33,348 nt of DNA from Candidatus Margulisiibacteriota bacterium (GTDB lineage Bacteria > Margulisbacteria > WOR-1 > O2-12-FULL-45-9). The translations under genes and the position numbers were made by a program. This document shows positions 8,232-30,742 of this stretch, piece after piece. The notes below the pieces were generated by a model that was not told the DNA's origin, made no database searches, and worked only from the letters and a program-made list of their open reading frames with translations. The stretch spans positions 1-33,348 of the forward strand of contig JAYEOW010000038.1 in NCBI GenBank assembly GCA_034723395.1, in the 5' to 3' direction. Position 1 is the stretch's first letter. The number at the start of each line of letters is the position of its first letter.

Positions 8232-8645
8232 ATGAGAAAGTTAGTTTTGGTTGCGGTTTCGGTTGCGATATTTGCTTCAAGTGCGTTTGCTTTTATGCCG
8301 GCAATTATTGGCGGTTATCGTGATGGATTGGCTGTCGGTATTCAAGGTTCCAGTTCGATTGCGCGTAACGTTGCGCTCCGTCTGGGAGTTGAAGCTACCG
8401 GAGGAAATGCCCCTCTGATCGCCTTTATCGGAGGTAAATTCTATCTTGGAGCAATGGGTAGAATGCCGATGTCATTGGGCCTTTCAGGTGTAATGTATTC
8501 GGGTAATTCAAGCAGTAAATTCGGTTTCGGCCTATCGGCTATCTTTGATCGCGCCTTCGGTGTGCGGCCGATGTTCCTTGAGGTTGGAGTAGATGTGGTT
8601 GATGCCGCCAGGGCGCAGATCCAGTTAGGGTATAAGATCTACTAA
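8232..8645 (+). CDS. Exported protein, probable small outer-membrane beta-barrel
   Basis: Sec signal peptide (MRKLVLVAVSVAIFASSAFA), Gly/aromatic alternating strands, C-terminal QIQLGYKIY ending in an aromatic residue. Confidence 0.6.
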   Translation: MRKLVLVAVSVAIFASSAFAFMPAIIGGYRDGLAVGIQGSSSIARNVALRLGVEATGGNAPLIAFIGGKFYLGAMGRMPMSLGLSGVMYSGNSSSKFGFGLSAIFDRAFGVRPMFLEVGVDVVDAARAQIQLGYKIY

Positions 8646-9689
8646 AAGAGAGATATAGTCCCGGATGGGGAATCCGGCCACGTTATCAAGGCTGATGTGT
8701 CCTTTAGCAAGTGGCTCTAGCATGGAACTCTCTTTATAAACCTCAAATCGGACGGATCTGCCATTACGAGTAACTTTTATGATATATGGTTCGCCTTGAT
8801 CAAAAATAAATCCTCCATTTCCTTTTGAATTTTTTACAACAAAATTTGTTCCCCCAATATTCCCCAGCGGCATTCCGGTTGCGCCCGCATTTTTTGCAAA
8901 GGTATATTCTGTTATTGAAGGGTTTTTGCCGAATAATTTCTTAAATTGGTGAATGCTCCAATCGGGGGCCCCGTTACCATTAGCCGCGCTGCTCGCTTCC
9001 TCAGGCAGGTAATTTACCTTATCCGGTTCGAGGCCAAAAAATACTTTTCTTATTTCTCGGTTGTGTTTATGGCTAAAAATAGCTCTCCGCGCATTACCAA
9101 TTTCATCAAAGGTTAGCTGGCCTTTTATAATTCCAGCTTTTGTTTCACCGAAATGTAATAATGGAAAAAGCGCCGGCATCGCGATCCTCCCTTTGCCGTA
9201 GGTGCTCCATTCTATCTCGCAAGGGGAGGGGATCTCCCCATTCTTTGCCACCCAGGCAAGGAAGTCCGCCTTCCACCCCGGGTCCAGTAGTTCCGACCAG
9301 ATGGGACGGACCCTGAAATAAATATCACTAGGACTGCTTCCCGGATGGAGCTCAAAAAAGGCTCCATTTAATACATTTTGGGGAACTTTAAAGCGGGCAG
9401 ACAGTGTCTCCATCTCTGCTGAAGAGACGAATACCTGGTTGGTGCAGTTATTAATATTGTTGTCTTCGGTCCGAACTAAAATATGTGAGGACCGCACAAC
9501 CCTACCGCCAACTTTAATCCCATCATTAGTGAACTTAATGTCAGGAGATGTATCGTGAAGACGATGAAATTCTCTTTCAGTTATGTGTTTTCCGGGGGGA
9601 GGGGTAATGCTACGGCCAGGAGCTCTCCGTAAAAAACAATAGGCTTTACCCGGCCTGCTCCCAATTTGATATAAAGCTGTTACTCCCAT
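8625..9689 (-). CDS. Orphan hypothetical protein (354 aa), sigma-28-like motif upstream
   Basis: Long ORF with no recognisable family. Motif ends 8 nt before the ATG. 3' end overlaps the convergent gene by 21 nt. Confidence 0.7.
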   Translation of the reverse strand: MGVTALYQIGSRPGKAYCFLRRAPGRSITPPPGKHITEREFHRLHDTSPDIKFTNDGIKVGGRVVRSSHILVRTEDNNINNCTNQVFVSSAEMETLSARFKVPQNVLNGAFFELHPGSSPSDIYFRVRPIWSELLDPGWKADFLAWVAKNGEIPSPCEIEWSTYGKGRIAMPALFPLLHFGETKAGIIKGQLTFDEIGNARRAIFSHKHNREIRKVFFGLEPDKVNYLPEEASSAANGNGAPDWSIHQFKKLFGKNPSITEYTFAKNAGATGMPLGNIGGTNFVVKNSKGNGGFIFDQGEPYIIKVTRNGRSVRFEVYKESSMLEPLAKGHISLDNVAGFPIRDYISLLVDLIP

Positions 9690-9697
9690 GACAACTA

Positions 9698-9727
9698 TTT
9701 ATCCGGAGGTTTTGGGCAAAATTTCAG
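9698..9727 (-). promoter_or_regulatory. Sigma-28-like promoter motif, copy A
   Basis: CTGAAATT-ttgcccaaaacctc-CGGATAAA. The TGA is the stop codon of the upstream ORF. Confidence 0.65.
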
Positions 9728-10497
9728 TTTTTGTTATATTGTTCCCTCAGATCAATTAAGCTTGTATCAAAAGAATGAAGTTTTATGTCATCCAGGATCG
9801 AGTGGCCAATTCTTTGTCCATTCGATACGCAAAATAAGGAATTTTGGATTGAGATTGCCAATTTTTTGCTCTCATTTGTCGGTCCATTTTCATCAAACGA
9901 GAACAATGTGATATTACTTTCCAGCATTGATCTTATCCTTTCGAATAAAGGTCCCGGATCCGGGCCGAAAAAGAACCTGAAGCCTCTATAATCCAACGCA
10001 TGCGACGGATTATCTGTTTTGTGGCCGGTAATGCAGGCGAATGGCCGGGCATCGAGCCTGGATATTATTGCGCGGAGCAGTGACTGGTATTCCCGAAATA
10101 TTGTTTCGGCCGTTGGGCCCTTGTCGATCCGGGGGAGGAGACAATTTACCAGCACTGTTCCAAAAGGGACCTCATCACATCCAATGCGGGGAAGGACTAT
10201 CTGGGGCGCGTGATATTCGAGCTCCAGCCGGGTCGGGATAAGTGCATCGAGTGATCCCGGGGGACGGACCGAAACGGAATTGACACTGCGAGAAAATCTT
10301 TTTATTTCGGTCATTACCCGGAGTCCCGCGCTTTCAACAAATGCCTGCGCTTGTTCCATGGTTTTTAGAGCGGACAGCTCTCGAACGATCTTTCGAGGGA
10401 TCCGCCGGTTTTTATTGGTTCGATCTAACCAGCGCAAGGTATTATGTGACTTTGATATATTTAATGTTCTTGTTTTTGTTATCATTTTATTAATCAA
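9724..10497 (-). CDS. Orphan hypothetical protein (~255 aa), sigma-28-like motif upstream
   Basis: Long ORF with TTG 10497 or ATG 10485 start. No recognisable family. Confidence 0.7.
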   Translation of the reverse strand: MINKMITKTRTLNISKSHNTLRWLDRTNKNRRIPRKIVRELSALKTMEQAQAFVESAGLRVMTEIKRFSRSVNSVSVRPPGSLDALIPTRLELEYHAPQIVLPRIGCDEVPFGTVLVNCLLPRIDKGPTAETIFREYQSLLRAIISRLDARPFACITGHKTDNPSHALDYRGFRFFFGPDPGPLFERIRSMLESNITLFSFDENGPTNESKKLAISIQNSLFCVSNGQRIGHSILDDIKLHSFDTSLIDLREQYNKN

Positions 10498-10514
10498 ACT
10501 TTTCCTGTTACTTT

Positions 10515-10544
10515 AATATCGTATGGATCTGGATAGAATTTCAG
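10515..10544 (-). promoter_or_regulatory. Sigma-28-like promoter motif, copy B
   Basis: CTGAAATT-ctatccagatccat-ACGATATT. Confidence 0.7.
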
Positions 10545-10577
10545 TTTCCAAGTGATTTTTGCTATACTATTTCTGTA

Positions 10578-10703
10578 ATGGGGATTGTCCAGATTATAAT
10601 GACCGTATGTATCGTCGCTGCCGTTATCTTCTATTTCTACAAGCGGAGCAAATGGATGAAGGAACAGGAAATGGAAGAGAGGTTCCGGGATCTTTACGAA
10701 TGA
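10578..10703 (+). CDS. Small single-pass membrane protein (41 aa), not in the ORF track
   Basis: MGIVQIIMTVCIVAAVIFYFYKRSKWMKEQEMEERFRDLYE*. TGcTATACT lies 9 nt upstream. Its stop abuts the stop of the convergent ORF. Confidence 0.65.
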   Translation: MGIVQIIMTVCIVAAVIFYFYKRSKWMKEQEMEERFRDLYE

Positions 10704-11582
10704 TCAGCTCCCCGGACTATTGATCCACTCACTATCATAATATAACTCGAAGGCTCTGCTTAAGCTGAGGAAAAGACTGTTTATCCCGGCCAATTCATTC
10801 TCGATCGTATATCCTTCGATGAGCAGCGCTTTGCCGTCCCGGTTTAAAATGATCGTAATAGCTATGTGTCGGCCGACCTCTCCTGCTACCGCATCGCGGC
10901 AGATCGCGGCCTCCTTGGTCAGGCCTAATTTTACGGCGAGCATGTAGTGGAAGGCGAGGGAGGCGACGTCGTTCCAGACCTTATCCAGATCGGTTTCTGC
11001 TTCGATCTGTATCGCCTTCTTACGGATATTTGATTCAATATCGATTATTGCATCGGATAACGGCGCGCTTGAGAGCGCGTATGGCTTGATCAGCCCGAAA
11101 GCCATCTTAAGCTTTACTGCCCGCATGCCAAAGTCCCGGCAAAATTCAACCAGGAGATCGGATATATCGTTCCGGTCCCGCTTGATTACCTGGTTAATCG
11201 ATTTGAGCAGCTGCGGTATGATCTTGCCGCTGATGGACAGGAACAATTCGCTCATATCCGGGTCGGTTTCAAAATAGTTGTCGATCAATTTTTTCCCGAT
11301 TAATAATGGGACGCATTTTGTTGTAAACTTCGGGCCCTCTTGCAGAAAAACGCGGATCGTCTGTAGATTATGATAGATGTTAAACATGCTGCGAGGATTG
11401 TCCTTGTTTGAAGGGACGAAAATAATGCGGTAGCCGTTTTGGCAGTTGGTCAGGGTGTCAAAGTTCTTAACTACGGTCTGCAGGATATTGGCCAGGTGGT
11501 TAAGCTTAGTATGGTCCCACCCGTATTTTGATATCTCCCTGATATCCAGCGGCGCTTTTGGAGTAGTTCTGGTAATACGCAT
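10704..11582 (-). CDS. Orphan hypothetical protein (292 aa)
   Basis: Long ORF starting MRITRTTPKAP, with AAAGGT before the ATG and a weak motif copy at 11614-11643. Confidence 0.7.
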   Translation of the reverse strand: MRITRTTPKAPLDIREISKYGWDHTKLNHLANILQTVVKNFDTLTNCQNGYRIIFVPSNKDNPRSMFNIYHNLQTIRVFLQEGPKFTTKCVPLLIGKKLIDNYFETDPDMSELFLSISGKIIPQLLKSINQVIKRDRNDISDLLVEFCRDFGMRAVKLKMAFGLIKPYALSSAPLSDAIIDIESNIRKKAIQIEAETDLDKVWNDVASLAFHYMLAVKLGLTKEAAICRDAVAGEVGRHIAITIILNRDGKALLIEGYTIENELAGINSLFLSLSRAFELYYDSEWINSPGS

Positions 11583-11586
11583 ACCT

Positions 11587-12051
11587 TTATTGGTTAAACC
11601 CTATCTTAATAGTTACATCGGCCCGCTGTATTGCATTTTTTGCGGGATCGATGGTGATATACGCTTTAACGTTTCTTCCTTCGGTGCTGTTAACCGTAAT
11701 CTTGCATTTTAGTTGTTGATTCCTTATTCCATGAGTGGCAAGTTCTCTAATTGCGACCCGGATCGATCGATTTAATATCTGGGAACGGGCTTCGGGGTCA
11801 CCCAGGATTGCGCTGTCACTTACGGAAAACTTTATCTCACTGACATTTTTTTTCTCCAGGGCCGAAGCAATTTCACGAAAGCGGGTTGCCCTTAAATATC
11901 CCGGGGTTAACACTAAGGTGTTCTTCCGTCTGTTTTTAAGTATTTTATCTTTTAGTTGGCGGGAGAATACCGTTAATCCCTTAAGGTATACACCTTTTCC
12001 AAGCAATCTAAAGGGACGCTCCAACAATATTAAATTACGGAACATTTTCAT
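11587..12051 (-). CDS. Orphan basic hypothetical protein (154 aa), sigma-28-like motif upstream
   Basis: ORF fills the gap between neighbours. Motif ends 8 nt before the ATG. Confidence 0.6.
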   Translation of the reverse strand: MKMFRNLILLERPFRLLGKGVYLKGLTVFSRQLKDKILKNRRKNTLVLTPGYLRATRFREIASALEKKNVSEIKFSVSDSAILGDPEARSQILNRSIRVAIRELATHGIRNQQLKCKITVNSTEGRNVKAYITIDPAKNAIQRADVTIKIGFNQ

Positions 12052-12059
12052 CTTGAATA

Positions 12060-12089
12060 TTTATCGGGGGAAAATTGCGCAGATTTCAG
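12060..12089 (-). promoter_or_regulatory. Sigma-28-like promoter motif, copy C (inside the 3' end of the HAD gene)
   Basis: CTGAAATC-tgcgcaattttccc-CCGATAAA. The TAA is the upstream stop codon. Confidence 0.7.
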
Positions 12090-12594
12090 TCCAATTTTTA
12101 ACTCTTTTTATGTTTTTTTTCTTAGTGGAAAAACGGTTCCAGGGATGGTCGAAGAGGAACACCCGATCGCAGTGTTCTGCGAGCAGTTCGCATTCTTCAA
12201 AATGGTCCTCAATAAAAATGTCGCAATCCTTTGCTTTTAAGAATTTTTCCTTCTCTCTTGAATGATGAAGCTCATGATAAGGGACATTGAGCTTTTTTAG
12301 CCAGCTTTTAGTTTGCCGGTTAAAGAGGGGGAAACGTCCAGTGATCAGTTTAATGTGATGTTTATCCGACCATCCTTGAATAGTTTCGATCGCGCCATCG
12401 ATCGGCGAGATCCTGGTCATTACCTTGGTCCGCCAGGCGTTAAAGAAATAGCGCCAAAGTTTTAGCCGTTCTTTGCGGAAGATATCAACTACTTCTGACG
12501 GATCGACCTTCCTTCCCATGAATTCGTTGAAGTAATCCGAAAGGTCACGGAAGGTATCCGCTATTACGTTGTCTATATCGATCCCGATTTTCAT
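12061..12594 (-). CDS. HAD-superfamily 5'(3')-deoxyribonucleotidase-like protein (NT5C/YqfW type)
   Basis: MKIGIDIDNVIADT (DxD motif I), ITGR (motif II), DIFIEDH (motif IV), LFDHPWN, RVKNW. Confidence 0.85.
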   Translation of the reverse strand: MKIGIDIDNVIADTFRDLSDYFNEFMGRKVDPSEVVDIFRKERLKLWRYFFNAWRTKVMTRISPIDGAIETIQGWSDKHHIKLITGRFPLFNRQTKSWLKKLNVPYHELHHSREKEKFLKAKDCDIFIEDHFEECELLAEHCDRVFLFDHPWNRFSTKKKNIKRVKNWTEICAIFPR

Positions 12595-12614
12595 ATATTA
12601 ATTATTATAACACA

Positions 12615-12654
12615 CCCTCACCCCCTGTCCCCCTCTCCCAAAAGGAGAGGGGGA
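12615..12654. repeat. REP-like palindrome (CCCTCACCCC..CCCTCTCC/GGAGAGGG family)
   Basis: Perfect 11-bp stem TCCCCCTCTCC-caaaa-GGAGAGGGGGA preceded by CCCTCACCCC. A related element lies at 20956-21025. Confidence 0.7.
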
Positions 12655-12664
12655 ACCAAAATAA

Positions 12665-12694
12665 CTGAAATTATTGCCATTTTTTAACGATATA
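12665..12694 (+). promoter_or_regulatory. Sigma-28-like promoter motif, copy D
   Basis: CTGAAATT-attgccatttttta-ACGATATA, 10 nt before ATG 12705. Confidence 0.7.
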
Positions 12695-12704
12695 TATATC
12701 AGGT

Positions 12705-13427
12705 ATGAACGTGACAAAGGCTAGAGAGAATTATAGGGTAATTCCGCATGGAGGTCCGCGAACACTGGTTTTAACCCATCTTCGCGGCGGACAAAGCCAT
12801 AATACCAGGGTTTGCCGCAAATTATGGGAAGTCGCCGATCCGGTTTTTCCAAACCGTTCCCCGTTCGACCACCGGTTGTATCTCAAGGAGAACCATACCG
12901 ATTTTCTCGAACAGGTTGAATTAAGGCTTGGACAGGATGATAAGGTCTTTTCTGCCTCGGGTTCGTTGCATGACCGCACTCCTCCGACCGGTTATGAGAA
13001 TTCTACGCATATCTTTGTCCCGGCATCGGAGCGCGGTTTTGTAGGGCCGGGCCGGCATCTTTTTTTTCTGGGAGGGGGCAACCTAAAATTCTGCCTTGCT
13101 GATACCTTCGAATCGATCATTTTAGCGAAGGGTGAGCAGGGAGAAAGGGTTCAGATCGTTATAACGACACCCTTAGCTTACACAGCAAAGGCAATGGATC
13201 GTTCGGGATACGTCAAAAATCCAAATGAATTTAGCAAAATACTGGAAGGGAGGGATCACCGTATCGCGGTCGATGGTGAATTAATTGCTGATGAGAGCGG
13301 AAAGAACCCTGTTGTTGAACTCCATTGGTTCTCTTCGGTCACTACAATGTTTGCTTCTCCATTCTTTCCTGAATTACAGGATACGACAGCCTTCTCCCGC
13401 GTAATTAATTATTTCATGCATATCTAA
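12705..13427 (+). CDS. Orphan hypothetical protein (240 aa), sigma-28-like motif upstream
   Basis: Long ORF. LFFLGGGNLKFCLADT weakly recalls the cysteine-hydrolase G-x4-C-x3-T motif. Confidence 0.7.
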   Translation: MNVTKARENYRVIPHGGPRTLVLTHLRGGQSHNTRVCRKLWEVADPVFPNRSPFDHRLYLKENHTDFLEQVELRLGQDDKVFSASGSLHDRTPPTGYENSTHIFVPASERGFVGPGRHLFFLGGGNLKFCLADTFESIILAKGEQGERVQIVITTPLAYTAKAMDRSGYVKNPNEFSKILEGRDHRIAVDGELIADESGKNPVVELHWFSSVTTMFASPFFPELQDTTAFSRVINYFMHI

Positions 13428-13429
13428 TC

Positions 13430-13458
13430 TTGAGAGCCTTCCCTCTATATGTTAAAAT
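13430..13458 (+). promoter_or_regulatory. Sigma-70 promoter of thyX (likely leaderless)
   Basis: TTGAGA-17-TAAAAT with TG extension, 8 nt before ATG 13467. Confidence 0.65.
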
Positions 13459-13466
13459 CTTTCTAT

Positions 13467-14876
13467 ATGAGAGTGATCCTCGCCGGTTATAACGTTGATA
13501 CCGAAGTCTTGGAAGACCTTAAAAAGAGCAGCCGTCCGCGGTCGGATGTTACCCCCGAGACGATCTCGGCCTCCTATGCCCGTATTTCCCGCGATCCAAG
13601 GCCGGTAGACGAACTCCGTAAAGTCGCCCGCGAAGAGGTAGAAAAAGCGCGCAAATCTAACTCCGCGATCATCTTCAAAATGGGGCACCATTCGATCGCC
13701 GAACATGCGGTCTTTAACTTTGATATCCTTGGTGTTTCACGTTTAGCCCTCGAAGAGTTAGAAAAATTCCGCCTCTGCGCCTATACCGAAAAATCACAGC
13801 GTTACCAGAAACTCGAAGATGATTATATTGTTCCGGATGAGATAAAAACTGCCGGGTTTGACAAAGATTTTATAGATACGATCAAGAAGCAAAACGCGTT
13901 CTATCATGAAATGGTTGGTCAGGGGATCGAGCCTGAAGACGCACGTTATATCACTTCTCTGGCCACCCAAGCACAGTTGGGCCAGACGATCAACGCCCGT
14001 AACCTGGAATTCCTGTTCCGCCGCTTTGCTTCTCATCCTTTAAATGAAGTTCGTAATCTAGGGAAGGAACTCTATAAATTAGTCGAGCCGATTGCGCCTT
14101 CAATTATTCTTTTTACCGAAGCGAATGAATATGATCAGAAGACTTATGGGGGAATCAGGGACAAAATCAATGAGAAATCGCGGGGAATCAAGGGGAATAA
14201 AGGGAAGGAAGTTGTTCTAGAATCATATACTAAGAATGCGGATGATGTTCTGATTGCGTCGTTTATTCATTCTTCTACGAATTTGCCTTATAAGAAGTGT
14301 TTGAAACAGGCTAAACAAATGAGCGAAAGCGAGAAAAAGGAAATCGTAAAGAAATGTTTTGAGTATGCGGAATTTTACGACCGGCCGCAGCGGGAGTTTG
14401 AATATATTGACCTGACTTATAATTTAATCGTTTCTGCAGCCTGTTTCGGACAGTTAAAAAGACACCGAATGGCTAGTATTACCAGCCAGGTATACGACCC
14501 ATCCTTAGGGGTGACGATTCCTGAGGCGATAGTGAAGGCCGGATTGGATAAGAAGTTTAAGCGTGTAGTAAACTCGACTAACAAGACATTTACAAAAATA
14601 GCTGAGAAACATCCTATGGCTGCACAATATATTCTAACGAATGCGCATCGTAAACGGGTGTTGATCAATGTTAATGCCCGTGAGCTATATCATATTTCAA
14701 GGCTGCGGGAAGATGCCCATGCGCAGTGGGATATTAAGGTTATTAGCCAAAAGATGACCGGGCTGGCAAAAAGGGTTATGCCGCTAACCATGATGTTTAT
14801 CGGCGGAAAAGATGGGTATCCCGCAGTTTATGAGGCTCAATTTGGTAAGAAACCGAAGGTAATGCCACTCGCGTAA
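13467..14876 (+). CDS. thyX: FAD-dependent thymidylate synthase, tandem ThyX domains
   Basis: GHHSIAEH, KFRLCAYTEKSQRY, EDARY and INARNL in domain 1. QLKRHRMAS, NARELYH and HAQWDI in domain 2. Confidence 0.9.
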   Translation: MRVILAGYNVDTEVLEDLKKSSRPRSDVTPETISASYARISRDPRPVDELRKVAREEVEKARKSNSAIIFKMGHHSIAEHAVFNFDILGVSRLALEELEKFRLCAYTEKSQRYQKLEDDYIVPDEIKTAGFDKDFIDTIKKQNAFYHEMVGQGIEPEDARYITSLATQAQLGQTINARNLEFLFRRFASHPLNEVRNLGKELYKLVEPIAPSIILFTEANEYDQKTYGGIRDKINEKSRGIKGNKGKEVVLESYTKNADDVLIASFIHSSTNLPYKKCLKQAKQMSESEKKEIVKKCFEYAEFYDRPQREFEYIDLTYNLIVSAACFGQLKRHRMASITSQVYDPSLGVTIPEAIVKAGLDKKFKRVVNSTNKTFTKIAEKHPMAAQYILTNAHRKRVLINVNARELYHISRLREDAHAQWDIKVISQKMTGLAKRVMPLTMMFIGGKDGYPAVYEAQFGKKPKVMPLA

Positions 14877-14896
14877 TAATAAGGGGGGGGAAGTAA

Positions 14897-15985
14897 ATGT
14901 TAAAGAGAATAATTGTTTTTTGTCTGCTTTCACTGTTTGTGCTTTCGGTTTCGGTAATGGCGCTCGATTTCCAGACCGGGAAAAAGGTCTATGTGGCAAA
15001 GGACCAGATCATATTTGACAATTTCTTTGCTTCGGGTGAAAAGGTATATATAGCCGGACGGATAATGGGCGACCTGATCGTTTTTGCTGGTGAGGTAATC
15101 GTCACCGGGCAGGTTGACGGCAATATTATCACCGCTGGCGGAGATGTTAAGCTTTCCGGGAGGGCACAGAATATTTTTGCGTCCGGCGGCACCATTCTGG
15201 TCAACGGGGTTGTTAAACGGGACTTGCTGATCGGCGGCGGCGAGATCTATATTACCAAGAATTCGAGGGTAGGGCGTGATGCCTATATCGGCGGCGGATC
15301 CGCTAATGTTGCGGGTAAGATATATCGGAACCTGAAGGCAGGGACCGGGACACTGGTTATCTCTCAAAATGCGCTAGTAAAAGGGAAAATTGATTACTCT
15401 TCACGCTATTCAAATGTGTCCAACAAAGCGAAGATATTGGGGAAAGTATCTTACCATCCAATGCCCGATTATCAAGAACAAGCCCAAAGAGTATTTGCGG
15501 GGATCGCACTTACTCGGGAAATTATCGGAGTCTTAACTATTTTATTGCTAGGTCTTCTGTCAATTTTCTTCTTGCCGCACCAGGTTAAGTTGATCCGGGT
15601 GGCGATGCAGAGGGATTTTTGGAAGAATTTTGGGATGGGGATATTATCCCTTATCCTGATCCCCATCGTTACCATTCTCCTCTTTGTGACCTTAGTCGGT
15701 TTTCCGCTGGGGATCCTTCTTTTAGTAGCCTATATATTCGGCATCTATTTTACGACGATTTTTGCCAGCATCTATATCGGCCACTGGATATTTAAAAAGA
15801 TGGGGAAACCGAATATCCATAACGGTTGGTCGCTGGTCGTCGGTTATATCGTATTTAAGGTGTTGACCTGGATCCCGCTGATCGGCTGGCTCTTTGGACT
15901 GATTGTCTTCTTCTGGGCCTTTGGCACCCTGGTCACCACCAGGTTTGTCACTTATAAAGAGGCGAGGGAGCGGGGCGTTCTTTAG
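14897..15985 (+). CDS. Membrane protein with bactofilin-like/polymer-forming beta-helix repeats
   Basis: Signal peptide, repeated GG-x-V-x-I-x-G-x-V-x-G-D units, then several TM helices (TLVGFPLG, IPLIGW). Confidence 0.75.
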   Translation: MLKRIIVFCLLSLFVLSVSVMALDFQTGKKVYVAKDQIIFDNFFASGEKVYIAGRIMGDLIVFAGEVIVTGQVDGNIITAGGDVKLSGRAQNIFASGGTILVNGVVKRDLLIGGGEIYITKNSRVGRDAYIGGGSANVAGKIYRNLKAGTGTLVISQNALVKGKIDYSSRYSNVSNKAKILGKVSYHPMPDYQEQAQRVFAGIALTREIIGVLTILLLGLLSIFFLPHQVKLIRVAMQRDFWKNFGMGILSLILIPIVTILLFVTLVGFPLGILLLVAYIFGIYFTTIFASIYIGHWIFKKMGKPNIHNGWSLVVGYIVFKVLTWIPLIGWLFGLIVFFWAFGTLVTTRFVTYKEARERGVL

Positions 15986-15987
15986 AA

Positions 15988-18603: not shown

Positions 18604-18606
18604 ATT

Positions 18607-19647: not shown

Positions 19648-19653
19648 TTGTCG

Positions 19654-20955: not shown

Positions 20956-21025
20956 CCCTCACCCAACTTATTCTCAATGTTTATCGTCGGTTATCCCCCG
21001 CTCCCTGAGGGAGAGGGGGTGAGGG
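20956..21025. repeat. REP-like nested hairpin after glgA (possible terminator)
   Basis: CCCTCACCC (20956-20964) pairs with GGGTGAGGG (21017-21025). Inner stem CTCCC-tga-GGGAG. Confidence 0.65.
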
Positions 21026-21062
21026 TTGTTTAAGAAAGACTTTCTATGTTAAAATCACTATC

Positions 21063-22519: not shown

Positions 22520-23281
22520 ATGTTAGCAAAAAGAATTATCCCGTGTCTCGATGTTACCGAAGGAAGGGTCGTAAAGGGGACTAAGTTCGTGGACCTAAAA
22601 GATGCCGGCGATCCGGTCGAGCTGGCGGCGATCTACGATAAAGAGGGGGCGGACGAACTGGTCTTCCTCGATATTACCGCATCTTCGGATAAACGCCATA
22701 TAATGCTGGATGTAGTTAAAAGGACCTCTGAAAAGATATATATCCCTTTTACCGTTGGCGGAGGGATCAATAATGTTGGGACGATGCGGAAGATTATCGC
22801 CGCAGGAGCTGATAAGGTGTCGGTCAATACAGCAGCCGTGGCCGATCCTAACCTGGTAAAAAAGGGGGCCGAAAAATTCGGTAGCCAGTGTATTGTTGTT
22901 GCCATAGACGCAAAGAAGATTAAGGATAAAAAGTGGGAAGTTTATACTCATGGAGGAAGAACTCCGACGGGGATCGATGCGGTCGAGTGGGCAAAGAAGG
23001 TTGAATCTCTCGGAGCAGGCGAGATACTCTTGACCAGCATGGACCGGGACGGAACCAAGATCGGTTATGAGTTGGAATTGACCAGAGCAATCGCCGATGC
23101 GGTAGAAATTCCTGTAATTGCTTCTGGAGGCGCTGGAAGCAAGGAACATATTTATGAGGCGTTTGTAAAAGGGCATGCGGATGCCGCGCTCTTAGCTTCA
23201 CTGCTGCACTATAAAGAGCTAACTATTAAGGAGATAAAAGATCATCTTGCTAACAAAGGCATTACAGTCCGCGTTACCTAA
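22520..23281 (+). CDS. hisF: Imidazole glycerol phosphate synthase cyclase subunit
   Basis: [45 protein letters not shown]. Confidence 0.98.
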
Positions 23282-24050
23282 AAAAGGTAAGCTTGCCAGG
23301 GCGATGCGCTATTCGGTTTTTGCCGGCGGAAAGCGTTTCCGTCCGGTCCTTTGTATGGCGGCCGCAAAGGCATTGGGAAAGGACCCCAAAAAAGTGATCC
23401 CGATCGCCTGCGCCATCGAAATGCTCCACACCTTTACTTTGGTCCACGACGACCTTCCCGGGATGGATAATAGTGATTACCGCCGCGGGAAACTGACCTG
23501 CCACAAAAAATTCGATGAGGCGACTGCTATTCTCGCCGGTGATGCTTTGAATACGTTAGCCTTTAAAATTCTTGCTAGAGAGACTAATAATGCAAAAGTG
23601 ATCGAAGAGATCGGGAAAGGATTAATGAAGGTTGTAGAGGGTCAGGTAATGGATCTCGAAAGCGAAGGTAAAAAAATTAGCCTAAAAAGATTAAAGGCGA
23701 TCCATCTTAGTAAAACAGCCGCTCTGCTGATCGCCTGCGTCCGCGCTTCGGCGATCCAGCTAAAAGCGACCAAAAGACAGCTTAAATCGCTAACCAATTA
23801 TGCCAAACACCTCGGTCTTGCTTTTCAGATCGCAGATGATATACTGGATGCCACATCGACGAGAAAAAAACTGGGGAAGCCGGTCAAAGCAGATATCGGG
23901 AAAGGCTTTCCTTATTTTATTGGGGTAGAAAGATCCAGAAAACTGGCCTTGCTCGAAAAGAAAAAGGCGCTTGCTGCTTTAAGAATATTTGGCAGGAGAG
24001 CGGATAGTTTACGCGAGTTAGCAGAGTTTGTTGTAATAAGAAAAACATAG
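23247..24050 (+). CDS. ispA: Polyprenyl (farnesyl/geranylgeranyl) diphosphate synthase
   Basis: [38 protein letters not shown]. The start (TTG 23247, overlapping hisF) is uncertain. Confidence 0.9.
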
Positions 24051-24145
24051 CCGCTAAAACACAAAAGCACGAAAGAATTTAGTGTTTTAGTGCCTGCCCC
24101 TCGGGCTGAGCCTCGGGGCGAAGCCGGCAGGCAGGCTTTTGTGGC
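24050..24145. repeat. Nested palindromic/short-repeat intergenic element
   Basis: CTAAAACAC/GTGTTTTAG inverted pair, then CCTGCC...GGCAGGCAGG enclosing GCCCC...GGGGC. Confidence 0.55.
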
Positions 24146-24157
24146 AGGTAGAATAAT

Positions 24158-25558
24158 ATGTATAAACCAAATAAAGAAGAATTTATAAAGTTAGCGGAAA
24201 AAGGGAACCTGATCCCGGTTTATAAAGAGATACCGGTTGGCGATGAAAAACCGGTTTCGGCGTTTAGGAAAATAGAGGGTGAATACTCGTTCCTCCTGGA
24301 ATCGATCGAAGGCGGCGAAAAGATCGCCCGCTATTCGTTCCTCGGAACGTGTTCCAAGGATAAAGTCCACGAATTAAAATCATTCAAGGCGATCAAAAAT
24401 GTCCTGGGCAAATACAAGGCGGTTAAAGTCGATGGTTTGCCGAGGTTCCATGGCGGTTTGGTCGGTTACGTCAGTTATGATATGGTCCGGGAGATCGAAA
24501 AAATCCCCGACAAGAACAAAGACGATCTCAAATTATCCAAAATGGTCCTGCTGCACGCCGATACATTTTTATCCTTCGACCACATTAAAGGAAAACTGTT
24601 CATTATTTCAAACGCAGAGATAAAAGGGGACCCGGAAAAAGCTTATCGGGAAGCGTGCGCAAGGATCGATAATTTAGAGGGAGCTTTAAATAAAGCGGTC
24701 AAGCTTAGGGAGATCCGGCAAAAAGATAAAACGTCCGGATTTTCCTCGAATATGGCCCAAGAAGAGTACGAAGCTGTGGTTGAAAAAGGGAAGGAGCATA
24801 TAAAAGCCGGCGATGTTATCCAGTTCGTCCCTTCACAGCGTTTTGAGACCGATTGCCGCGCCGATCCTTTTGATGTCTACCGGGTGTTAAGAAGGATCAA
24901 TCCTTCGCCGTATATGTATTACCTTAAGTTGGGGAAATTAAAGATCGTCGGTTCCTCTCCGGAAGTTATGGTCCGTTTAGAGGACGGAATGGCCACGGTG
25001 AGGCCGATCGCGGGGACAAGGAAGAGAGGAAAAGACGAGGCCGAGGACCTGGCGATGGAGAAAGAGCTGTTAGCCTCGGACAAAGAGCGGGCCGAACATA
25101 TAATGTTGGTTGATCTCGGCCGTAACGACCTTGGCCGGGTTTGTGATTATGGAACAGTTAAAGTTACCGAAGAGATGGTTATCGAAAGATATTCGCATGT
25201 TATGCATATTGTCAGTAACGTTACCGGAAAACTTAAAAATGGGATGGACTCGGTCGATCTTTTGGAAGCGACCTTTCCGGCGGGGACGGTTTCCGGCGCG
25301 CCAAAAGTTCGTGCAATGGAGATAATCGATGAATTAGAGACAGTTAAGCGTGGTCCCTATGCCGGGACGATCGGCTATTTCGGATTTTCTGGTGAGATGG
25401 ATACCTGCATTACTATTCGTACGATTGTTTTTAAGGGTGACAAAGCCTATATCCAGGTTGGCGCGGGGATAGTGGCCGATTCTATTCCTGCTGAAGAATA
25501 TAAAGAGACCGTTAACAAAGCAAAAGCTATGCTTAAAGCGGTTGAAATGGCTTCATGA
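24158..25558 (+). CDS. trpE: Anthranilate synthase component I
   Basis: [54 protein letters not shown]. Confidence 0.92.
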
Positions 25559-26790
25559 TAAACTTCCGCCTGCTAAAACTTTCTGACCCGTGGCTCTGGG
25601 GATCGGTCAGCTTACTAATTATCATAAGCTTTTTTGCAATCTTCAGCTGCACCTTTTCGATGCAGGCCAAGATCGGCGCCGACGCCTTCCTTTTTATTAA
25701 ACGCCAGTTATTCTCGTTTTTTATCGGATTGATCGGCCTATCGATCTTTGCATATGTAGATTATAAGCGCTTGAAAAGATTATCACTCTACTTTTACGGA
25801 GCGATGCTCTTTTTTCTGTTCGTGATCTTGTTTGGAGGAGCAGGGACCGTGGCACAGCGTTGGCTTCAAATAGGGTCTTTCTCTTTTCAACCGTCGGAAT
25901 TGTCAAAGATAGTTATCGTGATCTGTCTGGCCGCGTACTTATCCACCCGTGAAAAATTAAAGAGTGTTCAGGAATACGGGGTCCTTTTGGCGATGGTCGG
26001 GATACCGTTCTTGCTGATCTTCAGGCAGCCCGATCTGGGAACTGCGCTGGTCTTTATTTTTATCCTGATCGGGATGTTGGCCGTGTCGGGATCATCGCCT
26101 AAGTTATTGGTCCTGATGGTCACGCCGATGGTCTCCATCCTATTGAGGCCGTTTATTTTTCTCTGGATTTTATATTTGTTAGGGATAATTGTAGCTTTAT
26201 TTTTAACGCGTGCCACAGTTTGGGACTGGGTTTTGGTCCTGGGGATAAATGTTTTAGTCGGTCTGGCGCTTCCGCTGATCTGGGGAATGTTAAAGACCTA
26301 TCAAAAAACGCGTATCCTGGCTTTTTTAAATCCTTCACTCGATCCGCACGGGGCAGGGTACCACAGTTTACAGTCGCGGATCGCGATCGGCAGCGGCGGG
26401 ATTTTTGGTAAAGGTTTTCTCCACGGGACGCAGACCCAGCTGCAGTTTATCCCCGAGCAGCACTCTGACTTCATCTTTGCCGCGATCGGTGAAGAATTTG
26501 GCTTTATCGGCGCCAGTTTTGTCCTTGCTTTATATTCGGTCGTTGTCTGGCGGGCGATGGCTATCGCGTCGGCTGCTTCGGACCTTTTTGGCAAACTGCT
26601 TGCTTCCGGGATAGCCGCGATGACTTCCTTTCATGTTTTTGCCAATGTTGGAATGACCTTGGGAATTCTACCCGTAGTAGGAATGCCGCTCCCGTTCTTA
26701 AGCTTTGGCGGATCGTCATTGATGATGAACATGATAGGGGTAGCGATATTACAGAGTATCTCAATGCGGCAGAGAAAGTTGATCTTTTAA
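25555..26790 (+). CDS. rodA: Rod shape-determining protein RodA (SEDS)
   Basis: FQPSELSK, QPDLGT, YQKTRI..FLNP, QSRIAIGSGG, PEQHSDFIF, GMPLPFLSFGGSS. Confidence 0.92.
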   Translation: MINFRLLKLSDPWLWGSVSLLIIISFFAIFSCTFSMQAKIGADAFLFIKRQLFSFFIGLIGLSIFAYVDYKRLKRLSLYFYGAMLFFLFVILFGGAGTVAQRWLQIGSFSFQPSELSKIVIVICLAAYLSTREKLKSVQEYGVLLAMVGIPFLLIFRQPDLGTALVFIFILIGMLAVSGSSPKLLVLMVTPMVSILLRPFIFLWILYLLGIIVALFLTRATVWDWVLVLGINVLVGLALPLIWGMLKTYQKTRILAFLNPSLDPHGAGYHSLQSRIAIGSGGIFGKGFLHGTQTQLQFIPEQHSDFIFAAIGEEFGFIGASFVLALYSVVVWRAMAIASAASDLFGKLLASGIAAMTSFHVFANVGMTLGILPVVGMPLPFLSFGGSSLMMNMIGVAILQSISMRQRKLIF

Positions 26791-27995
26791 AGCTTAAATT
26801 CGGCTTCTACCTGCCCAACTGCTTCAAAGGTCTCATCTTTTACGGAAATAATAATTTTTTCAGCCTTTACCCATCTATCCTTTTTCTTCATATAAACCTT
26901 GCCGGTGAGAGTCAATATTTCGATCCCATCATTGTATACCGCCCGATCCGCTTTTGCTTCCCGCCCTTTTTGAGTAACCAAGACCGAGCCGGTAGCGGTA
27001 GCGTCCCCGGTTTTGGTCGAAAACAGAAGTTCATCAGAAGTTAAGACCGTCTTTTCCTTAAGTATCTCTTTGGCCTCTTTGCTTCTAAGATTTTTAGCCG
27101 TGCTCTCTTTTAAGACCGCTCTCGCTTTTTCAAAGATCGCCTTAACACTCCCTTTCATATAAAGGCTCTTTCTCGGCTGGGAGTAGAGGGCGGAATCGGC
27201 CACCGCAAACTTCTTTCCCTGGACTACATCAACGCTCCCTTTTAAGCGCATATTCCGGGCAGCGTCGGTATAAAATGAAGCGTGGTTGGCTTTGATGACC
27301 GTTTTTACCTTATTTTCAGTAATAGTTAATCTGACATTTTCATCTGCTTCGAGTCTCTCGCTGTCACTATGATATTCCATCTTTTTAGAATAAAGGATCC
27401 CGTCTTTTCTCCGGAGCCGGACCTTATCGAACATACGCGCGATATTTTTATCGTTATCGATCAGGATCCTCTGGGTAAATATTGAGGAATCTTTTTTATG
27501 CAGGTTAACATTGCCGGAGATCTCGGTCTCTTCAATCTTTGGAACATATTTTAACAAATCAGCGGTCATCTTTGTCCAATCTTTTTTCTCCCGATTGGAT
27601 ATCCTGCCAAGGTCGAGATAGGCATTTACTCGATTATTCTTATCTCCAACAACCTCCACAACATCTGAGCGCCTGTACGCCTTGGCGCGGGGAGCGGAAA
27701 GATCGATGACCACTAATTTGCCCGACTTATATATCTTTCCTTTAGTTACATCAAAGAGGTGGGTAACATCGCAATTCTTTGTGGACCAGCCGTCTTTGGC
27801 GTTGAATTCCCAGAGCGGTTTACCGTCTTTACGCCCAGAAACGCGGGTATCTTTGAATTCGGCCACTTTTTCGGTCTTATCTTCACTAAAATAGGTCATA
27901 TCGCGGGGGGAGATGAAATAGTAGACAGCTCCCATTACGAACAGCGAAAAAATGGCCGCGACCAGTATAATTTTCCACGAAAGGTTCTCATCCAT
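26787..27995 (-). CDS. LptC/LptA (OstA-like) periplasmic LPS transport protein
   Basis: N-terminal TM helix, G..dGK..WEF.A (LptC-like), then repeated beta-strand units (A.AD.A.Y.....L.L.G.V). Confidence 0.7.
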   Translation of the reverse strand: MDENLSWKIILVAAIFSLFVMGAVYYFISPRDMTYFSEDKTEKVAEFKDTRVSGRKDGKPLWEFNAKDGWSTKNCDVTHLFDVTKGKIYKSGKLVVIDLSAPRAKAYRRSDVVEVVGDKNNRVNAYLDLGRISNREKKDWTKMTADLLKYVPKIEETEISGNVNLHKKDSSIFTQRILIDNDKNIARMFDKVRLRRKDGILYSKKMEYHSDSERLEADENVRLTITENKVKTVIKANHASFYTDAARNMRLKGSVDVVQGKKFAVADSALYSQPRKSLYMKGSVKAIFEKARAVLKESTAKNLRSKEAKEILKEKTVLTSDELLFSTKTGDATATGSVLVTQKGREAKADRAVYNDGIEILTLTGKVYMKKKDRWVKAEKIIISVKDETFEAVGQVEAEFKL

Positions 27996-28010
27996 AGATC
28001 TCCATTATAA

Positions 28011-28040
28011 CGCAAGAATTTGGCTTAATAAACCGATATG
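28011..28040 (+). promoter_or_regulatory. Sigma-28-like promoter motif, copy E
   Basis: CGCAAGAA-tttggcttaataaa-CCGATATG (CAAG-N15-aCCGATA). The upstream box is divergent. Confidence 0.5.
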
Positions 28041-28086
28041 TGTTATGTAAGGGTACGTGTGTATCTTTATAAGGAGAGCATGTGCA

Positions 28087-30255
28087 ATGCCAGCATTGTC
28101 AGCGGTAGCATTATATAGAAGAATTCAATCATCGCTTACTTCAAGAGCAGTGCGTTCGCCGTACGTGAACAGCAAGACCGTTGAACGTAATGGCCGCCAA
28201 TATCTTTCGATCTCTTCGCCCAGCCGGTTGCTTTTAACCGCGCTGGCGTGGATGCATAAAAAGAATGTCCTCTATCCTTTTGGCCATCCATTCTTTAAAC
28301 TATCCGGAAATACGGCCGATAAAACCAGGAAGGTTATCGACCTAAAACTCCCCCGGGACATTAAAAGTTATGAGACCTTGGCCGAGCATATTAAGAACCA
28401 TCCTAGTCCGGCCGATAAGGGTTTTAATAAAGAAAAGGGTCCGTTCCACTTGGACGATGTTATTGCCATCGCGGCAAAAGTTGCTGACGGGATTGCGGTA
28501 GCGGAAGATGTTAATGTATTGCTCAGGATCTCTCCTGAAGGGATCGTGGCCAGGAACAGCCGGACCGCCGGATCTGAGTTCAGGGAGTGGGACCTGTTTT
28601 TCATGGACCTAAACCACGCATCGCTGACCAAAGATGGATACCGGGGGATCGAGGGGCTGGACCGCGATAATCTTTCCCCGGAGGAGATCCGAGGCGATAA
28701 CAGTACGGTCTATTCCGAACGATATCGTTTGGGTATTTTGCTTTACACCTTATTGACCAGAAAAAATCCGTTCAAGGCTTTACGTGCCGAGTACAATGGT
28801 AAACCGCCACAGAATTTGGCAAAATTATTGGAAACCCGCCTGCGAAAAGAAAACGATCCTCTTTTAACCGCCCGGCTGGAGTTTGAACCTAAATTTGCGC
28901 AGAAAGAGATCTACGCGCTGCTTAAGGGGTTATTGGCCCGAGAAGGAAGCACGAGAATTACAGCTAAGGAAATGTTTGAACACTTAAGAAAACTTGAAGA
29001 AAGATATATTATCCATATTGATACCGCTTTGACGAATGGGAACGGACCGTTACATGTTGGAATGGAATACAGGATCAAGGAGAATATTAATAAACTTGGT
29101 GAGGGAGGGATGGCAAACGTTGTTGAATTCGACGCTTATAAAACGGGTGTGGGATGGAGAAAACTTAAAGGAGCGGCAAAGGTTACAAAAATGGATAGCG
29201 AGTTCCAGGAATATTTTGAGACTGAGTTGAATATACTGCATTTATTAAAAGATCTAAAAAATGTGATTTCTGTTGTGCGCAGTAATATTCACGGCGAGTT
29301 AGCCGGTTTCAGGGACAAAACAGGCAGTGATATTGTTGAAAACCATTCGATGGTCGAGGGGCGTGCGATCCATTTCGAGCGGATATATGATACATTAAAT
29401 GCTAAAGCCCGGATAAAGCCGATCAAAAGCGCGGAACAGCTTTATGATGTTTTGGAAATGCTCATCAGGATAGGGGAAACATTAAAAAAGATCCACGCAC
29501 GGGGGATCTTTCACCGCGATCTTAAATTTGAAAATATCGGCATGAGAGATGCGAGCTGGAATCCGGAAGGGATAAGAATATTGGACTTTGGCGTCGCAGT
29601 AGATACCCATAATAAAGAGCAGATGGAGAAGGAGGCGGAAACTTCCGGGCTTGGTCTGATAAAAGGGACCCCGTTCTATATGTCTCCGGAGATGACTAGG
29701 GGAGAGATCGATCTAAAAACCGATGTCTACTCATTAGCCACCATGTTTTACGAGCTGCTCTACGGCAAAAAAGGGGCAAATATAAAAGTAAAAACCTTGA
29801 GAGAAGCGCTTACTCAGATAACTCGCGGACATAGGTTAAATATTGTTCTGGAGACATTGAAAAATGGTTCGATATTGTTGGATAATAATGATCTGGCTGC
29901 CGGGCCGTCGTTAAAAAAGAGGGATCAGGTTAAAGCGAAAGAGCGGGAAGATGCAGATGTTTTTGAGGCGGATACGCTTGATTTTAAAAAGAATAGCCGT
30001 GATTTTGATATCATAAACGGACAGATGGCAAAGCGGGCGGGACCGGAGACCGGGCTGGCAAGACTAAATGGATCCGGCAAAGAGGTGCGCAGGCGGCTGG
30101 TAAGTATATTTACGCGCGCTTTAGCCACCGACCCGAAAAACAGAAACAGCATGGCCCAATTTGTTTACGGGCTGCAAGACCTGCGGGAATATATAGATAT
30201 TACGTTTGGGATAAGTGAAAAACGGGTTAAGACAAGAAGGGGACGGTTTGCCTGA
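28087..30255 (+). CDS. Hanks-type Ser/Thr protein kinase with an N-terminal degenerate kinase domain
   Basis: C-terminal domain has LGEGGMANV, AAK, HRDLKFEN, DFG, GTPFYMSPE, DVYSLA. AAGGAG precedes ATG 28087. Confidence 0.88.
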   Translation: MPALSAVALYRRIQSSLTSRAVRSPYVNSKTVERNGRQYLSISSPSRLLLTALAWMHKKNVLYPFGHPFFKLSGNTADKTRKVIDLKLPRDIKSYETLAEHIKNHPSPADKGFNKEKGPFHLDDVIAIAAKVADGIAVAEDVNVLLRISPEGIVARNSRTAGSEFREWDLFFMDLNHASLTKDGYRGIEGLDRDNLSPEEIRGDNSTVYSERYRLGILLYTLLTRKNPFKALRAEYNGKPPQNLAKLLETRLRKENDPLLTARLEFEPKFAQKEIYALLKGLLAREGSTRITAKEMFEHLRKLEERYIIHIDTALTNGNGPLHVGMEYRIKENINKLGEGGMANVVEFDAYKTGVGWRKLKGAAKVTKMDSEFQEYFETELNILHLLKDLKNVISVVRSNIHGELAGFRDKTGSDIVENHSMVEGRAIHFERIYDTLNAKARIKPIKSAEQLYDVLEMLIRIGETLKKIHARGIFHRDLKFENIGMRDASWNPEGIRILDFGVAVDTHNKEQMEKEAETSGLGLIKGTPFYMSPEMTRGEIDLKTDVYSLATMFYELLYGKKGANIKVKTLREALTQITRGHRLNIVLETLKNGSILLDNNDLAAGPSLKKRDQVKAKEREDADVFEADTLDFKKNSRDFDIINGQMAKRAGPETGLARLNGSGKEVRRRLVSIFTRALATDPKNRNSMAQFVYGLQDLREYIDITFGISEKRVKTRRGRFA

Positions 30256-30697
30256 CCTCAGGATTTGGATCGCTGCGTGAGATCATTATTCTGATATCAC
30301 GTGCCTCTCTAGCGCTTCGGCCGCCTAAAATCCTTTTCGCGGATTTTTCTTGCCCGCAAAGGATCAATAACCTTATCAGGTGAAACAATCTTCTGCCGTA
30401 AATACCAGAGGGGTTGATGAAGCGGGGGTTCTCGATTTTTTTTCCAAATTCTACGAGAATACTTCCTGCCAGCAGATTGAGGCTAGGATCGCTTTTGAAA
30501 TGTTGCAAAATATATTCGATGGTCGGCTTTAGCTCTTTATTATCGACGTGAAGCTTTCGAAGATTAAAGAGATCAATCTCTTTTTCTCTTAGTGAACCTC
30601 GGTTCTGGATCGAAATGATCGCTTTACGCGCCCATATTTTACGGACAGGTGGTCGCTGCGCGGGAATCGTTGGTGTTCCGCCTATCGTAATGCTCAT
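30227..30697 (-). CDS. Orphan hypothetical protein (156 aa), sigma-28-like motif upstream
   Basis: Start re-placed to ATG 30697 (GGAGGT ribosome-binding site), giving MSITIGGTPTIPAQRPP. 3' end overlaps the kinase gene by 29 nt. Confidence 0.65.
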   Translation of the reverse strand: MSITIGGTPTIPAQRPPVRKIWARKAIISIQNRGSLREKEIDLFNLRKLHVDNKELKPTIEYILQHFKSDPSLNLLAGSILVEFGKKIENPRFINPSGIYGRRLFHLIRLLILCGQEKSAKRILGGRSAREARDIRIMISRSDPNPEVRQTVPFLS

Positions 30698-30712
30698 TTT
30701 TACCTCCGGATA

Positions 30713-30742
30713 ATTATCATTAATATTCCCGGTTAATTTCAC
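30713..30742 (-). promoter_or_regulatory. Sigma-28-like promoter motif, copy F
   Basis: GTGAAATT-aaccgggaatatta-ATGATAAT. Confidence 0.6.

Follow-up and report, generated by a model that had tools for sequence, protein, structure and literature searches.

The stretch of DNA analysed here, hereafter the window, is the entire contig C38 (33,348 nucleotides) of a genome of Candidatus Margulisiibacteriota (1.68 Mb in 55 contigs, 97% complete); the Margulisbacteria form an uncultured sister phylum of the Cyanobacteria. In five places the window carries a bipartite DNA motif that is a real, fixed-spacing element: it is conserved, it has the placement and orientation of a promoter, it is kept apart from sigma-A-type promoters and it is enriched in front of orphan genes. 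The motif probably marks the promoters of an alternative sigma factor conserved throughout the taxonomic class, read by a relative of FliA/sigma-28, with a small two-domain sigma as the favoured candidate. For RNA polymerase carrying this sigma, the -35 element would be TGAAAT and the -10 element (C)GATA(A/T), with an invariable distance between the two, and some 130 such promoters per genome would drive mostly single, unrelated and patchily distributed genes.

A reading of the window made from its sequence alone (the sequence-only reading) had listed seven sites, A to G, as copies of one motif. All seven stretches were found where that reading had placed them (Table 1). Scored against a weight matrix of 45 columns, which was built from genome-wide copies, refined over four rounds and used to score every site, sites A, B, C, D and F belong together (23.6–38.5 bits), while sites E and G scored negatively and have only the CCGAT part in common with the motif. 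The strict pattern TGAAAT-N17-GATA, counted over both strands of the genome, was found in 85 copies, compared to 3–14 copies at each of 15 other spacings from N10 to N25. Similarly, the matrix returned 133 sites of at least 14 bits in the genome but 5 in locally shuffled DNA, and 106 versus none at a threshold of 20 bits. The sequence-only reading had expected many more sites genome-wide, which the count of about 130 bears out, and had staked itself on hits upstream of orphans being commoner than in shuffled intergenic DNA and on the presence of a sigma-28 relative, two of which are encoded in the genome.

The consensus, aaaaa[G/C]TGAAATTT-N13-nCGATAwatat, consists of an A-tract, the [G/C]TGAAATTT box, a spacer that is first C-rich and then A-rich, the nCGATA box and finally alternating A and T. 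A C precedes GATA in 63 of the 85 strict copies, and there is an invariant G. The motif is bipartite and has a fixed orientation, is not palindromic and is without flanking repeats.

Since the gene caller, a crude one based on codon usage, missed 43 motif-linked open reading frames (ORFs), the downstream ORFs were assigned by a mechanical rule that chose the earliest start yielding at least 40 amino acids; some of the starts chosen in this way, which lie 5–6 nt past GATA and are mostly TTG, are probably wrong. In 91 of the 101 sites of at least 20 bits with a downstream ORF, the start was at most 60 nt away and always on the strand of the motif, placing the motif 5–60 nt upstream of the start codons. 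This arrangement bears on the alternative that the sequence-only reading had held open, in which the motif would be a site of recombination, integration or cassette insertion and a mark of acquired genes. Such a site would suit the patchy distribution of the downstream genes, which sit singly among core genes and of which the orphan behind site D has orthologues in only 5 of the 47 sampled genomes of the class. The motif, however, always points at the downstream gene from 5–60 nt before its start, no second flanking copy was seen at the far end of the genes in the window, conserved genes such as rpoD are preceded by it in several genomes and no integrase is associated with the sites in the window. 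With orientation and distance to the start codon fixed, and neither a palindrome nor flanking repeats, an insertion site is extremely improbable.

The distances to the start codons also point to how the transcripts may begin. Starts lying at most 12 nt past GATA were found in 42 of the 101 cases, the commonest distances being 7 nt and 10 nt (11 cases each); 33 of these 42 close starts are ATG, and a Shine-Dalgarno sequence precedes 3 of the 42. Among the 49 starts lying 13–60 nt past GATA, 37 have a Shine-Dalgarno sequence. In sigma-28 and sigma-70 promoters transcription starts approximately 7–8 nt past the position of GATA in the -10 element, and we infer the same distance here, for which the accumulation of ATG codons at distances of 7 and 10 nt from GATA speaks. 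Genes that start at most 12 nt past GATA would therefore be leaderless or nearly so, which predicts a large class of leaderless mRNAs, approximately 40% of the motif-driven transcripts. Transcripts with the ATG 7 or 10 nt past GATA would have no leader or almost none, and the remainder would have a short leader with GGAGG.

Conservation of the motif was assessed in 30 relatives of the same order and in 120 genomes of the phylum, including 47 of the same class. In the relatives of the same order, the strict pattern was present in 19–139 copies per genome, compared to 1–17 at spacing N19. All 47 genomes of the class were enriched, with 19–239 copies versus 0–7 for the reversed pattern, while genomes of other classes in the sampled phylum had between 1 and 95 copies. 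The motif also stands about 20 nt before rpoD in the loci of the two closest named Margulisbacteria metagenome-assembled genomes (MAGs; 22.1 and 22.9 bits), and it was not kept before rpoD in two more distant named MAG loci. Of the five orthologues of the site-D orphan, four are preceded by the motif (17.8–29.0 bits) with differing spacer sequences.

Canonical TTGACA/TATAAT promoters coexist with the motif promoters and serve other transcription units. The pattern TTGAC-N18-TA.AAT peaked at 33 copies, with 18 and 15 copies at the spacings one nucleotide to either side and a background of approximately 4, a looser spacing as expected of a primary sigma. Of the upstream regions that lack the motif, 82 of 346 had a sigma-A-like match, defined as at least 10 of 12 bases, compared to 4 of 50 motif-bearing regions and 1 of 346 coding controls. 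The sole primary-type sigma of the genome (351 amino acids, regions 1.2–4) is 58–72% identical to SigA in records named Firmicutes or Clostridia, and its closest named relatives are from Candidatus Margulisiibacteriota MAGs (84% and 81% identity). Because the canonical promoter class is separate, sigma-A was excluded as the reader of the motif. A version in which the motif is an operator plus promoter, read by the sigma-A holoenzyme with the help of an activator or DNA-binding protein specific to the class, could draw on the likeness of GATAAT/GATATA to a -10 hexamer with nTGAAA 18 nt upstream, on the universality of sigma-A and on the resemblance of the upstream A-tract to an UP element. It is nevertheless improbable, as the spacing is held to one value where that of TTGACA/TATAAT promoters may vary by 1 nt either way, neither the conserved C ahead of GATA nor the invariant G is a sigma-A feature, the two kinds of promoter almost exclude each other and the register of the motif is identical to that of the sigma-28 flagellin promoters of relatives.

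The genes behind the motif are largely without recognizable family. Among the 99 proteins downstream of sites of at least 20 bits, 63 matched no Pfam family (E ≤ 1e-5). For proteins of at least 80 amino acids, the proportion without a Pfam family was 55 of 89, compared to 21 of 118 controls, which were genes heading motif-free transcription units in the same regions of the genome (odds ratio 7.5, p = 7e-11); the enrichment remained when only genes also found by the crude caller were considered (44 of 77, p = 3e-8). An all-against-all BLASTP comparison of 90 regulon proteins yielded only four small groups (of 3, 3, 2 and 2 members), ruling out that the orphans are one expanded family, as the proteins are mostly unrelated. 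The orphan regulon described by the sequence-only reading thus holds as an enrichment. It does not hold as a rule, since annotated genes are also motif-driven. That no copy stands before housekeeping genes is true of the core operons in the window, but site D heads a string that runs into thyX and glycogen genes, and genome-wide the statement fails. Motif-driven genes include those of rpoD/sigA, the 777-residue sigma and the 222-residue sigma; three Ser/Thr kinases, a PP2C phosphatase, two RelA/SpoT proteins, an adenylate cyclase and histidine kinases; second copies of PGK, PFK and PGM; and GH16 and GH116 enzymes, an RRM protein and PPDK-like proteins. On contig C7, at approximately 5.7–22 kb, a motif-driven cluster encodes PGK-like (451 amino acids) and PFK-like (439 amino acids) proteins along with PPDK_N-containing proteins of 1405 and 740 amino acids; standard copies of the carbon-metabolism enzymes are found elsewhere, such as the PGK at 31893–33095 of the window.

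The motif-driven proteins also have an unusual N-terminus in common. The net charge of the first 40 residues averaged +5.45, compared to +1.21 in 1377 other proteins (p = 6e-21), and a net charge of at least +4 was found in 63 of 80 motif-driven proteins versus 290 of the 1377 others. Arginine was 2.3-fold more frequent and proline and glutamine approximately 1.5-fold, while Asp and Glu were halved. The charge effect spans approximately residues 10–55 and is seen both in leaderless genes (n = 36) and in those led by a Shine-Dalgarno sequence (n = 44); residues 61–160 did not differ from the controls. Only 7 of 101 motif-driven proteins have a hydrophobic N-terminus, the helical hydrophobic moment of the leader was the same as in controls, and no sequence motif was detected in it beyond arginine-containing di- and gapped peptides. 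In regulon enzymes of known fold, the domain begins approximately 15–50 residues into the protein. Within the window, the arginine-rich N-terminus is present in the products of 8625–9689, 11587–12051, 12705–13427 and 30227–30697.

Which sigma factor reads the motif was narrowed down by distribution. Six sigma-70-family proteins are encoded in the genome, and, in line with the expectation of the sequence-only reading that a FliA/WhiG-type sigma should be found, two of them are sigma-28 relatives encoded beside flagellar basal-body and export genes. The first is the small sigma (196 amino acids, C46:681-1271), in which Sigma70_r2 covers residues 28–99 and Sigma70_r4 residues 139–187; region 3 is absent and, in alignment to FliA, the segment joining regions 2 and 4 lacks approximately 55 residues. 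This sigma was found in 47 of 47 genomes of the class at 57–81% identity, and matches to it (E ≤ 1e-8) were found in 113 of 121 genomes of the phylum, in most at 30–39% identity and often adjoining flhA. The second (246 amino acids, C55:4553-5293) has regions 2, 3 and 4 and was found in 45 of 47 genomes of the class at 60–78% identity. FliA_WhiG (TIGR02479) is the best NCBIfam family for both (135.6 bits for the 246-residue sigma, 75.1 bits for the small one), and the best PDB matches of both are likewise FliA/WhiG.

Three further sigmas fared poorly as readers. The extracytoplasmic function (ECF) sigma (223 amino acids, C53) was found in 35 of 48 genomes of the class and is missing from several that are 93–100% complete, the 222-residue sigma (C31) has no orthologue in the 47 class genomes, and for the 777-residue sigma (C33) the 120 phylum genomes yielded full-length orthologues in only 2, along with a single partial one. 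The motif, unlike these three, is enriched in all 47 genomes of the class. In their favour, TGAAAT-N16-CGATA resembles the SigW-type ECF promoters of Bacillus subtilis as given in the available text of PMC5758882, and the genes of the 222- and 777-residue sigmas are themselves motif-driven, but reading by any of the three is very improbable. The 777-residue sigma-like protein (C33:3291-5621), itself encoded behind the motif, carries an N-terminal extension of approximately 500 residues that belongs to no family.

With three sigmas failing on distribution, the promoters of sigma-A forming a separate class and the 246-residue sigma not found in two genomes that have the motif, the small sigma is favoured and the 246-residue sigma is its main rival. 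That the latter reads the motif in place of the small sigma is a doubtful proposition, though not a negligible one. This three-domain FliA/WhiG-like protein is the best FliA_WhiG match of the genome, it has regions 2, 3 and 4 as does sigma-28, the reader of an extended -10 element, and its gene lies inside a basal-body operon, between flgI and flgB. Moreover, the group sharing 60–78% identity coincides with the motif-rich class, identities outside being 25–38%. On the other hand, it was not found in genome G097 (95% complete, 152 strict copies) or in genome G027 (79% complete, 68 copies), in both of which the small sigma is kept, and its start overlaps the upstream gene, leaving no promoter of its own in which to look for feedback. 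The sequence-only reading had named an alternative sigma of group 3; the idea of a sigma-28-like regulon is supported, while the group 3 label is not established because the favoured candidate is built like an ECF sigma, with no more than two domains.

The small sigma is further set apart by a possible partner. Just upstream of it (the pair spanning C46:681-1712) lies a gene for a 111-residue protein of no family, preceded by a motif copy of 17.7 bits with the ATG 7 nt past GATA. The complex predicted for the 111-residue protein and the small sigma reached a median score of 0.79, compared to 0.01 for the best of three controls, a mark that 51 of 78 solved complexes and 2 of 108 mismatched pairs attained. 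At least 66% of contacts were shared between the prediction runs, and the partner had a predicted local distance difference test (pLDDT) value of at least 70. In the model, the 111-residue protein would contact the linker and region 4 of the small sigma. The model supports binding, and the protein is a candidate for a new anti-sigma or partner; the weaker motif copy before the operon would then give a feedback loop. Both the identity of the reading sigma and the anti-sigma role of the 111-residue protein are what we infer from these data.

Both candidate sigmas belong to a flagellar setting without flagellin. The sequence-only reading had called for a search for flagellar or export genes, and a near-complete basal body and type III export apparatus proved to be encoded, at C55:175-10789 and C46:20422-28960: rod, L and P rings, MS ring, FliM/FliN, the export gate FliOPQR-FlhB-FlhA and the ATPase complex FliHIJ. 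The operon of the 246-residue sigma reads flgF/G-flgG-flgA-flgH-flgI-orf100-sigma-flgB-flgC-fliE-fliF-fliG-fliH-fliI-fliJ, in which FliG has only 154 residues, comprising the N and M domains. No hook-associated proteins were found in the genome, no stator adjoins the apparatus (the only MotA_ExbB match lies next to TonB) and a single CheR-domain protein is the only chemotaxis-like one among the 99 downstream proteins. The ORF of 100 amino acids before the 246-residue sigma had no Pfam match even at E = 5 and was not adopted as FlgM or an anti-sigma; it contains what we take, by eye, to be a FlgJ rod-binding-like stretch. Across the phylum, 113 of 121 genomes were found to encode FlhA but only 15 flagellin, and many of the flagellin-positive ones have FlhA twice; being nearly universal, flhA failed as a discriminator by its phyletic profile.

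The flagellated relatives allow a direct comparison of promoters. Their flagellin genes are preceded by TAAAG-N15-nCGA[TA]A in the register of the matrix, 7 of 20 in strict form. The only GAAAT-type box seen at a flagellin gene was that of genome G123 (C64:827-1380; AGAAAT...TCGATAAT, 20.2 bits). Since the flagellin promoters share the register of the motif, the motif would be a sister specificity of the classical sigma-28 promoter. In the genome analysed here, classical [CT]TAAA...CGATA showed no spacing peak, which speaks against a second, canonical sigma-28 regulon.

Several observations weigh against a FliA-related sigma, and the small one in particular, as the reader. Both candidates score below the curated FliA_WhiG cut-off (189.6 bits), and none of the 20 flagellin promoters of relatives is of the TGAAA type. 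Neither Flagellin_N, Flagellin_C nor MCPsignal had a match in this 97% complete genome, and FlgM, for which the sequence-only reading had proposed a search, was not matched even at E ≤ 0.1. The strongest motif site on the flagellar contigs (23.0 bits, on C55) is far from the flagellar genes. As for the small sigma, a motif of at least 20 bits lies within 700 nt upstream of it in only 3 of 20 relatives, the sigma following flhA in many of the others, and a homologue (30–39% identity) is also found in families with background counts of the strict motif, so that its presence does not predict the motif.

A bolder reading would join the regulon to the apparatus, making the motif-driven proteins the cargo, or a co-targeted protein set, of the flagellin-less flagellar type III export apparatus found in nearly all Margulisbacteria. 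The small sigma would be held by its 111-residue partner as FliA is by FlgM, its release would turn on approximately 130 promoters, and the arginine-rich, acid-poor and non-hydrophobic leader of approximately 50 residues would be an export or targeting signal. We consider this unlikely as a whole. If it were true, a flagellum would have been remade for secretion or targeting, and the resulting system would have a sigma, a promoter code and a signal peptide to itself.

In the window, the motif sites head the genes listed in Table 1. The gene behind site A starts with an ATG 10 nt past GATA and has no Shine-Dalgarno sequence, and the ATG of the 154-residue gene behind site C lies at the same distance from GATA. 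Sites A, C and D are the window's examples of the close, leaderless-looking starts. The gene behind site B starts either at a TTG 19 nt past GATA, behind AGGAAAAG, or at an ATG 12 nt further downstream. The 292-residue orphan, for which site G had been proposed as a weak promoter, lies directly behind the 154-residue gene and is therefore more simply the second gene of the site-C operon. Downstream of the site-D orphan, a co-directional string extends from thyX to glycogen synthase, and a sigma-A-like TTGAGA-17-TAAAAT is found at 13430, between the orphan and thyX.

Table 1. Motif sites, genes behind them and rejected sites in the window.
Feature	Positions	Strand	Details
Site A promoter	9698..9727	-	CTGAAATT-N14-CGGATAAA; 36.0 bits
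354-residue orphan gene behind site A	8625..9689	-	no Pfam family; basic N-terminus
Site B promoter	10515..10544	-	CTGAAATT-N14-ACGATATT; 23.6 bits
257-residue orphan gene behind site B	9724..10497	-	
Site C promoter	12060..12089	-	CTGAAATC-N14-CCGATAAA; 25.2 bits; inside the 3' end of an NT5C-like gene
Two-gene orphan operon behind site C	10704..12051	-	154 residues (11587-12051), then 292 residues (10704-11582); gap 4 nt
Site D promoter	12665..12694	+	CTGAAATT-N14-ACGATATA; 38.5 bits; CCCTCTCCC/GGAGAGGG hairpin just upstream
240-residue orphan gene behind site D	12705..13427	+	ATG 12 nt past GATA
Site F promoter	30713..30742	-	GTGAAATT-N14-ATGATAAT; 31.6 bits
156-residue orphan gene behind site F	30227..30697	-	ATG 17 nt past GATA, behind GGAGG
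Site E of the sequence-only reading	28011..28040	+	-11.9 bits; not a motif member
Site G of the sequence-only reading	11614..11643	-	-12.3 bits; not a motif member

Other features of the window stand apart from the motif. The hairpin CCCTCTCCC-loop-GGGAGAGGG occurs at gene ends, at 12618–12655 just upstream of site D and at approximately 27 further positions genome-wide (55 matches when the palindromic pattern is counted on both strands), and is probably a family of terminator or REP-like (repetitive extragenic palindromic) elements. At 2–1907, KilA-N and Bro-N domain genes, which would be phage-derived DNA-binding proteins or a prophage remnant, lie directly before core genes (SpoU methylase, pheST and mutS). 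The ThyX (Thy1) protein encoded at 13449–14876 has 475 amino acids, approximately double the usual length, with two stretches matching the family, and may be a tandem-fused ThyX.

A limited collection of literature on Margulisbacteria flagella and sigma factors was found to contain no description of the motif or of a flagellin-less apparatus in this phylum. New here are the census across genome and class, the controlled enrichment before orphans, the leaderless class of starts and the exclusion of four sigmas, as well as two apparatus-linked sigma candidates, one of them with a predicted partner, the comparison with flagellin promoters and the N-terminal leader. The motif provides a usable transcription code, in which one short element predicts approximately one fifth of the transcription units together with probable starts and leaderless mRNAs. 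It gathers the roughly 100 orphan genes per genome that had lacked an explanation into a single co-regulated group with an arginine-rich N-terminus in common, a functional module that can be tested, and it ties this gene set to the role of a basal body and export apparatus conserved without filament, stator or chemoreceptors. The motif and its sigma would also serve as an orthogonal expression pair for genetic tools.

As a system, the regulon would operate like that of a sigma-28 or an ECF sigma. Among known systems, the sequence-only reading had matched the geometry of the motif to the consensus of sigma-28 (FliA / SigD / WhiG), TAAA-N15-GCCGATAA. The register and the -10 core agree, as they do with the flagellin promoters of relatives: GAAA and CCGA are 16 nt apart here, as are TAAA and CCGA there, there is one fixed spacing, the -10 core is CGATA(A/T) and the candidate sigmas are FliA/WhiG-like and lie in flagellar gene clusters. 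The match does not extend to the -35 element, which is TGAAAT rather than TAAAG. The genome also offers no flagellin, chemoreceptor or FlgM genes to regulate, and the approximately 130 promoters stand mostly before orphans, with about 40% of the starts leaderless-looking and the sigmas under the family cut-off. In terms of its targets (flagellin, hook-associated proteins, motAB, che and MCPs, the methyl-accepting chemotaxis proteins), the regulon fails as a member of the sigma-28 type.

A second comparison is with the SigW-type ECF promoters of Bacillus subtilis, which in the available text of PMC5758882 have TGAAAC(nTTTt) as the -35 and CGTA as the -10 element. Going by that text, the -35 word is nearly identical and followed by a T-tract, and the -10 element begins with CG in both. 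The resemblance fits the two-domain build of the favoured sigma, which like ECF sigmas has regions 2 and 4 only, and which has a predicted binding partner encoded behind a motif copy. The hallmark AAC of the -35 and CGT of the -10 element are, however, AAT and CGA here, with TGAAAC-N15-nCGATA occurring once and TGAAAC-N15/16-CGT[AC] 7 times in the genome. Furthermore, the best matches of the small sigma are to FliA and not to ECF families, and the 111-residue partner is without trans-membrane anti-sigma features among those tested. The motif regulon is also far larger than typical ECF regulons.

The nearest analogue is Chlamydia, which is not flagellated yet keeps sigma-28. There, sigma-28 has hctB and tsp as targets according to the available text of PMC12282069. 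As far as that text goes, a sigma-28 relative appears to have been kept in both cases without a flagellar filament and to serve non-flagellar genes. The analogy differs in scale and in hardware, with two targets named for Chlamydia compared to approximately 130 sites here, and with the Margulisbacteria keeping a near-complete flagellar basal body that includes rod, L and P rings and a C-ring.

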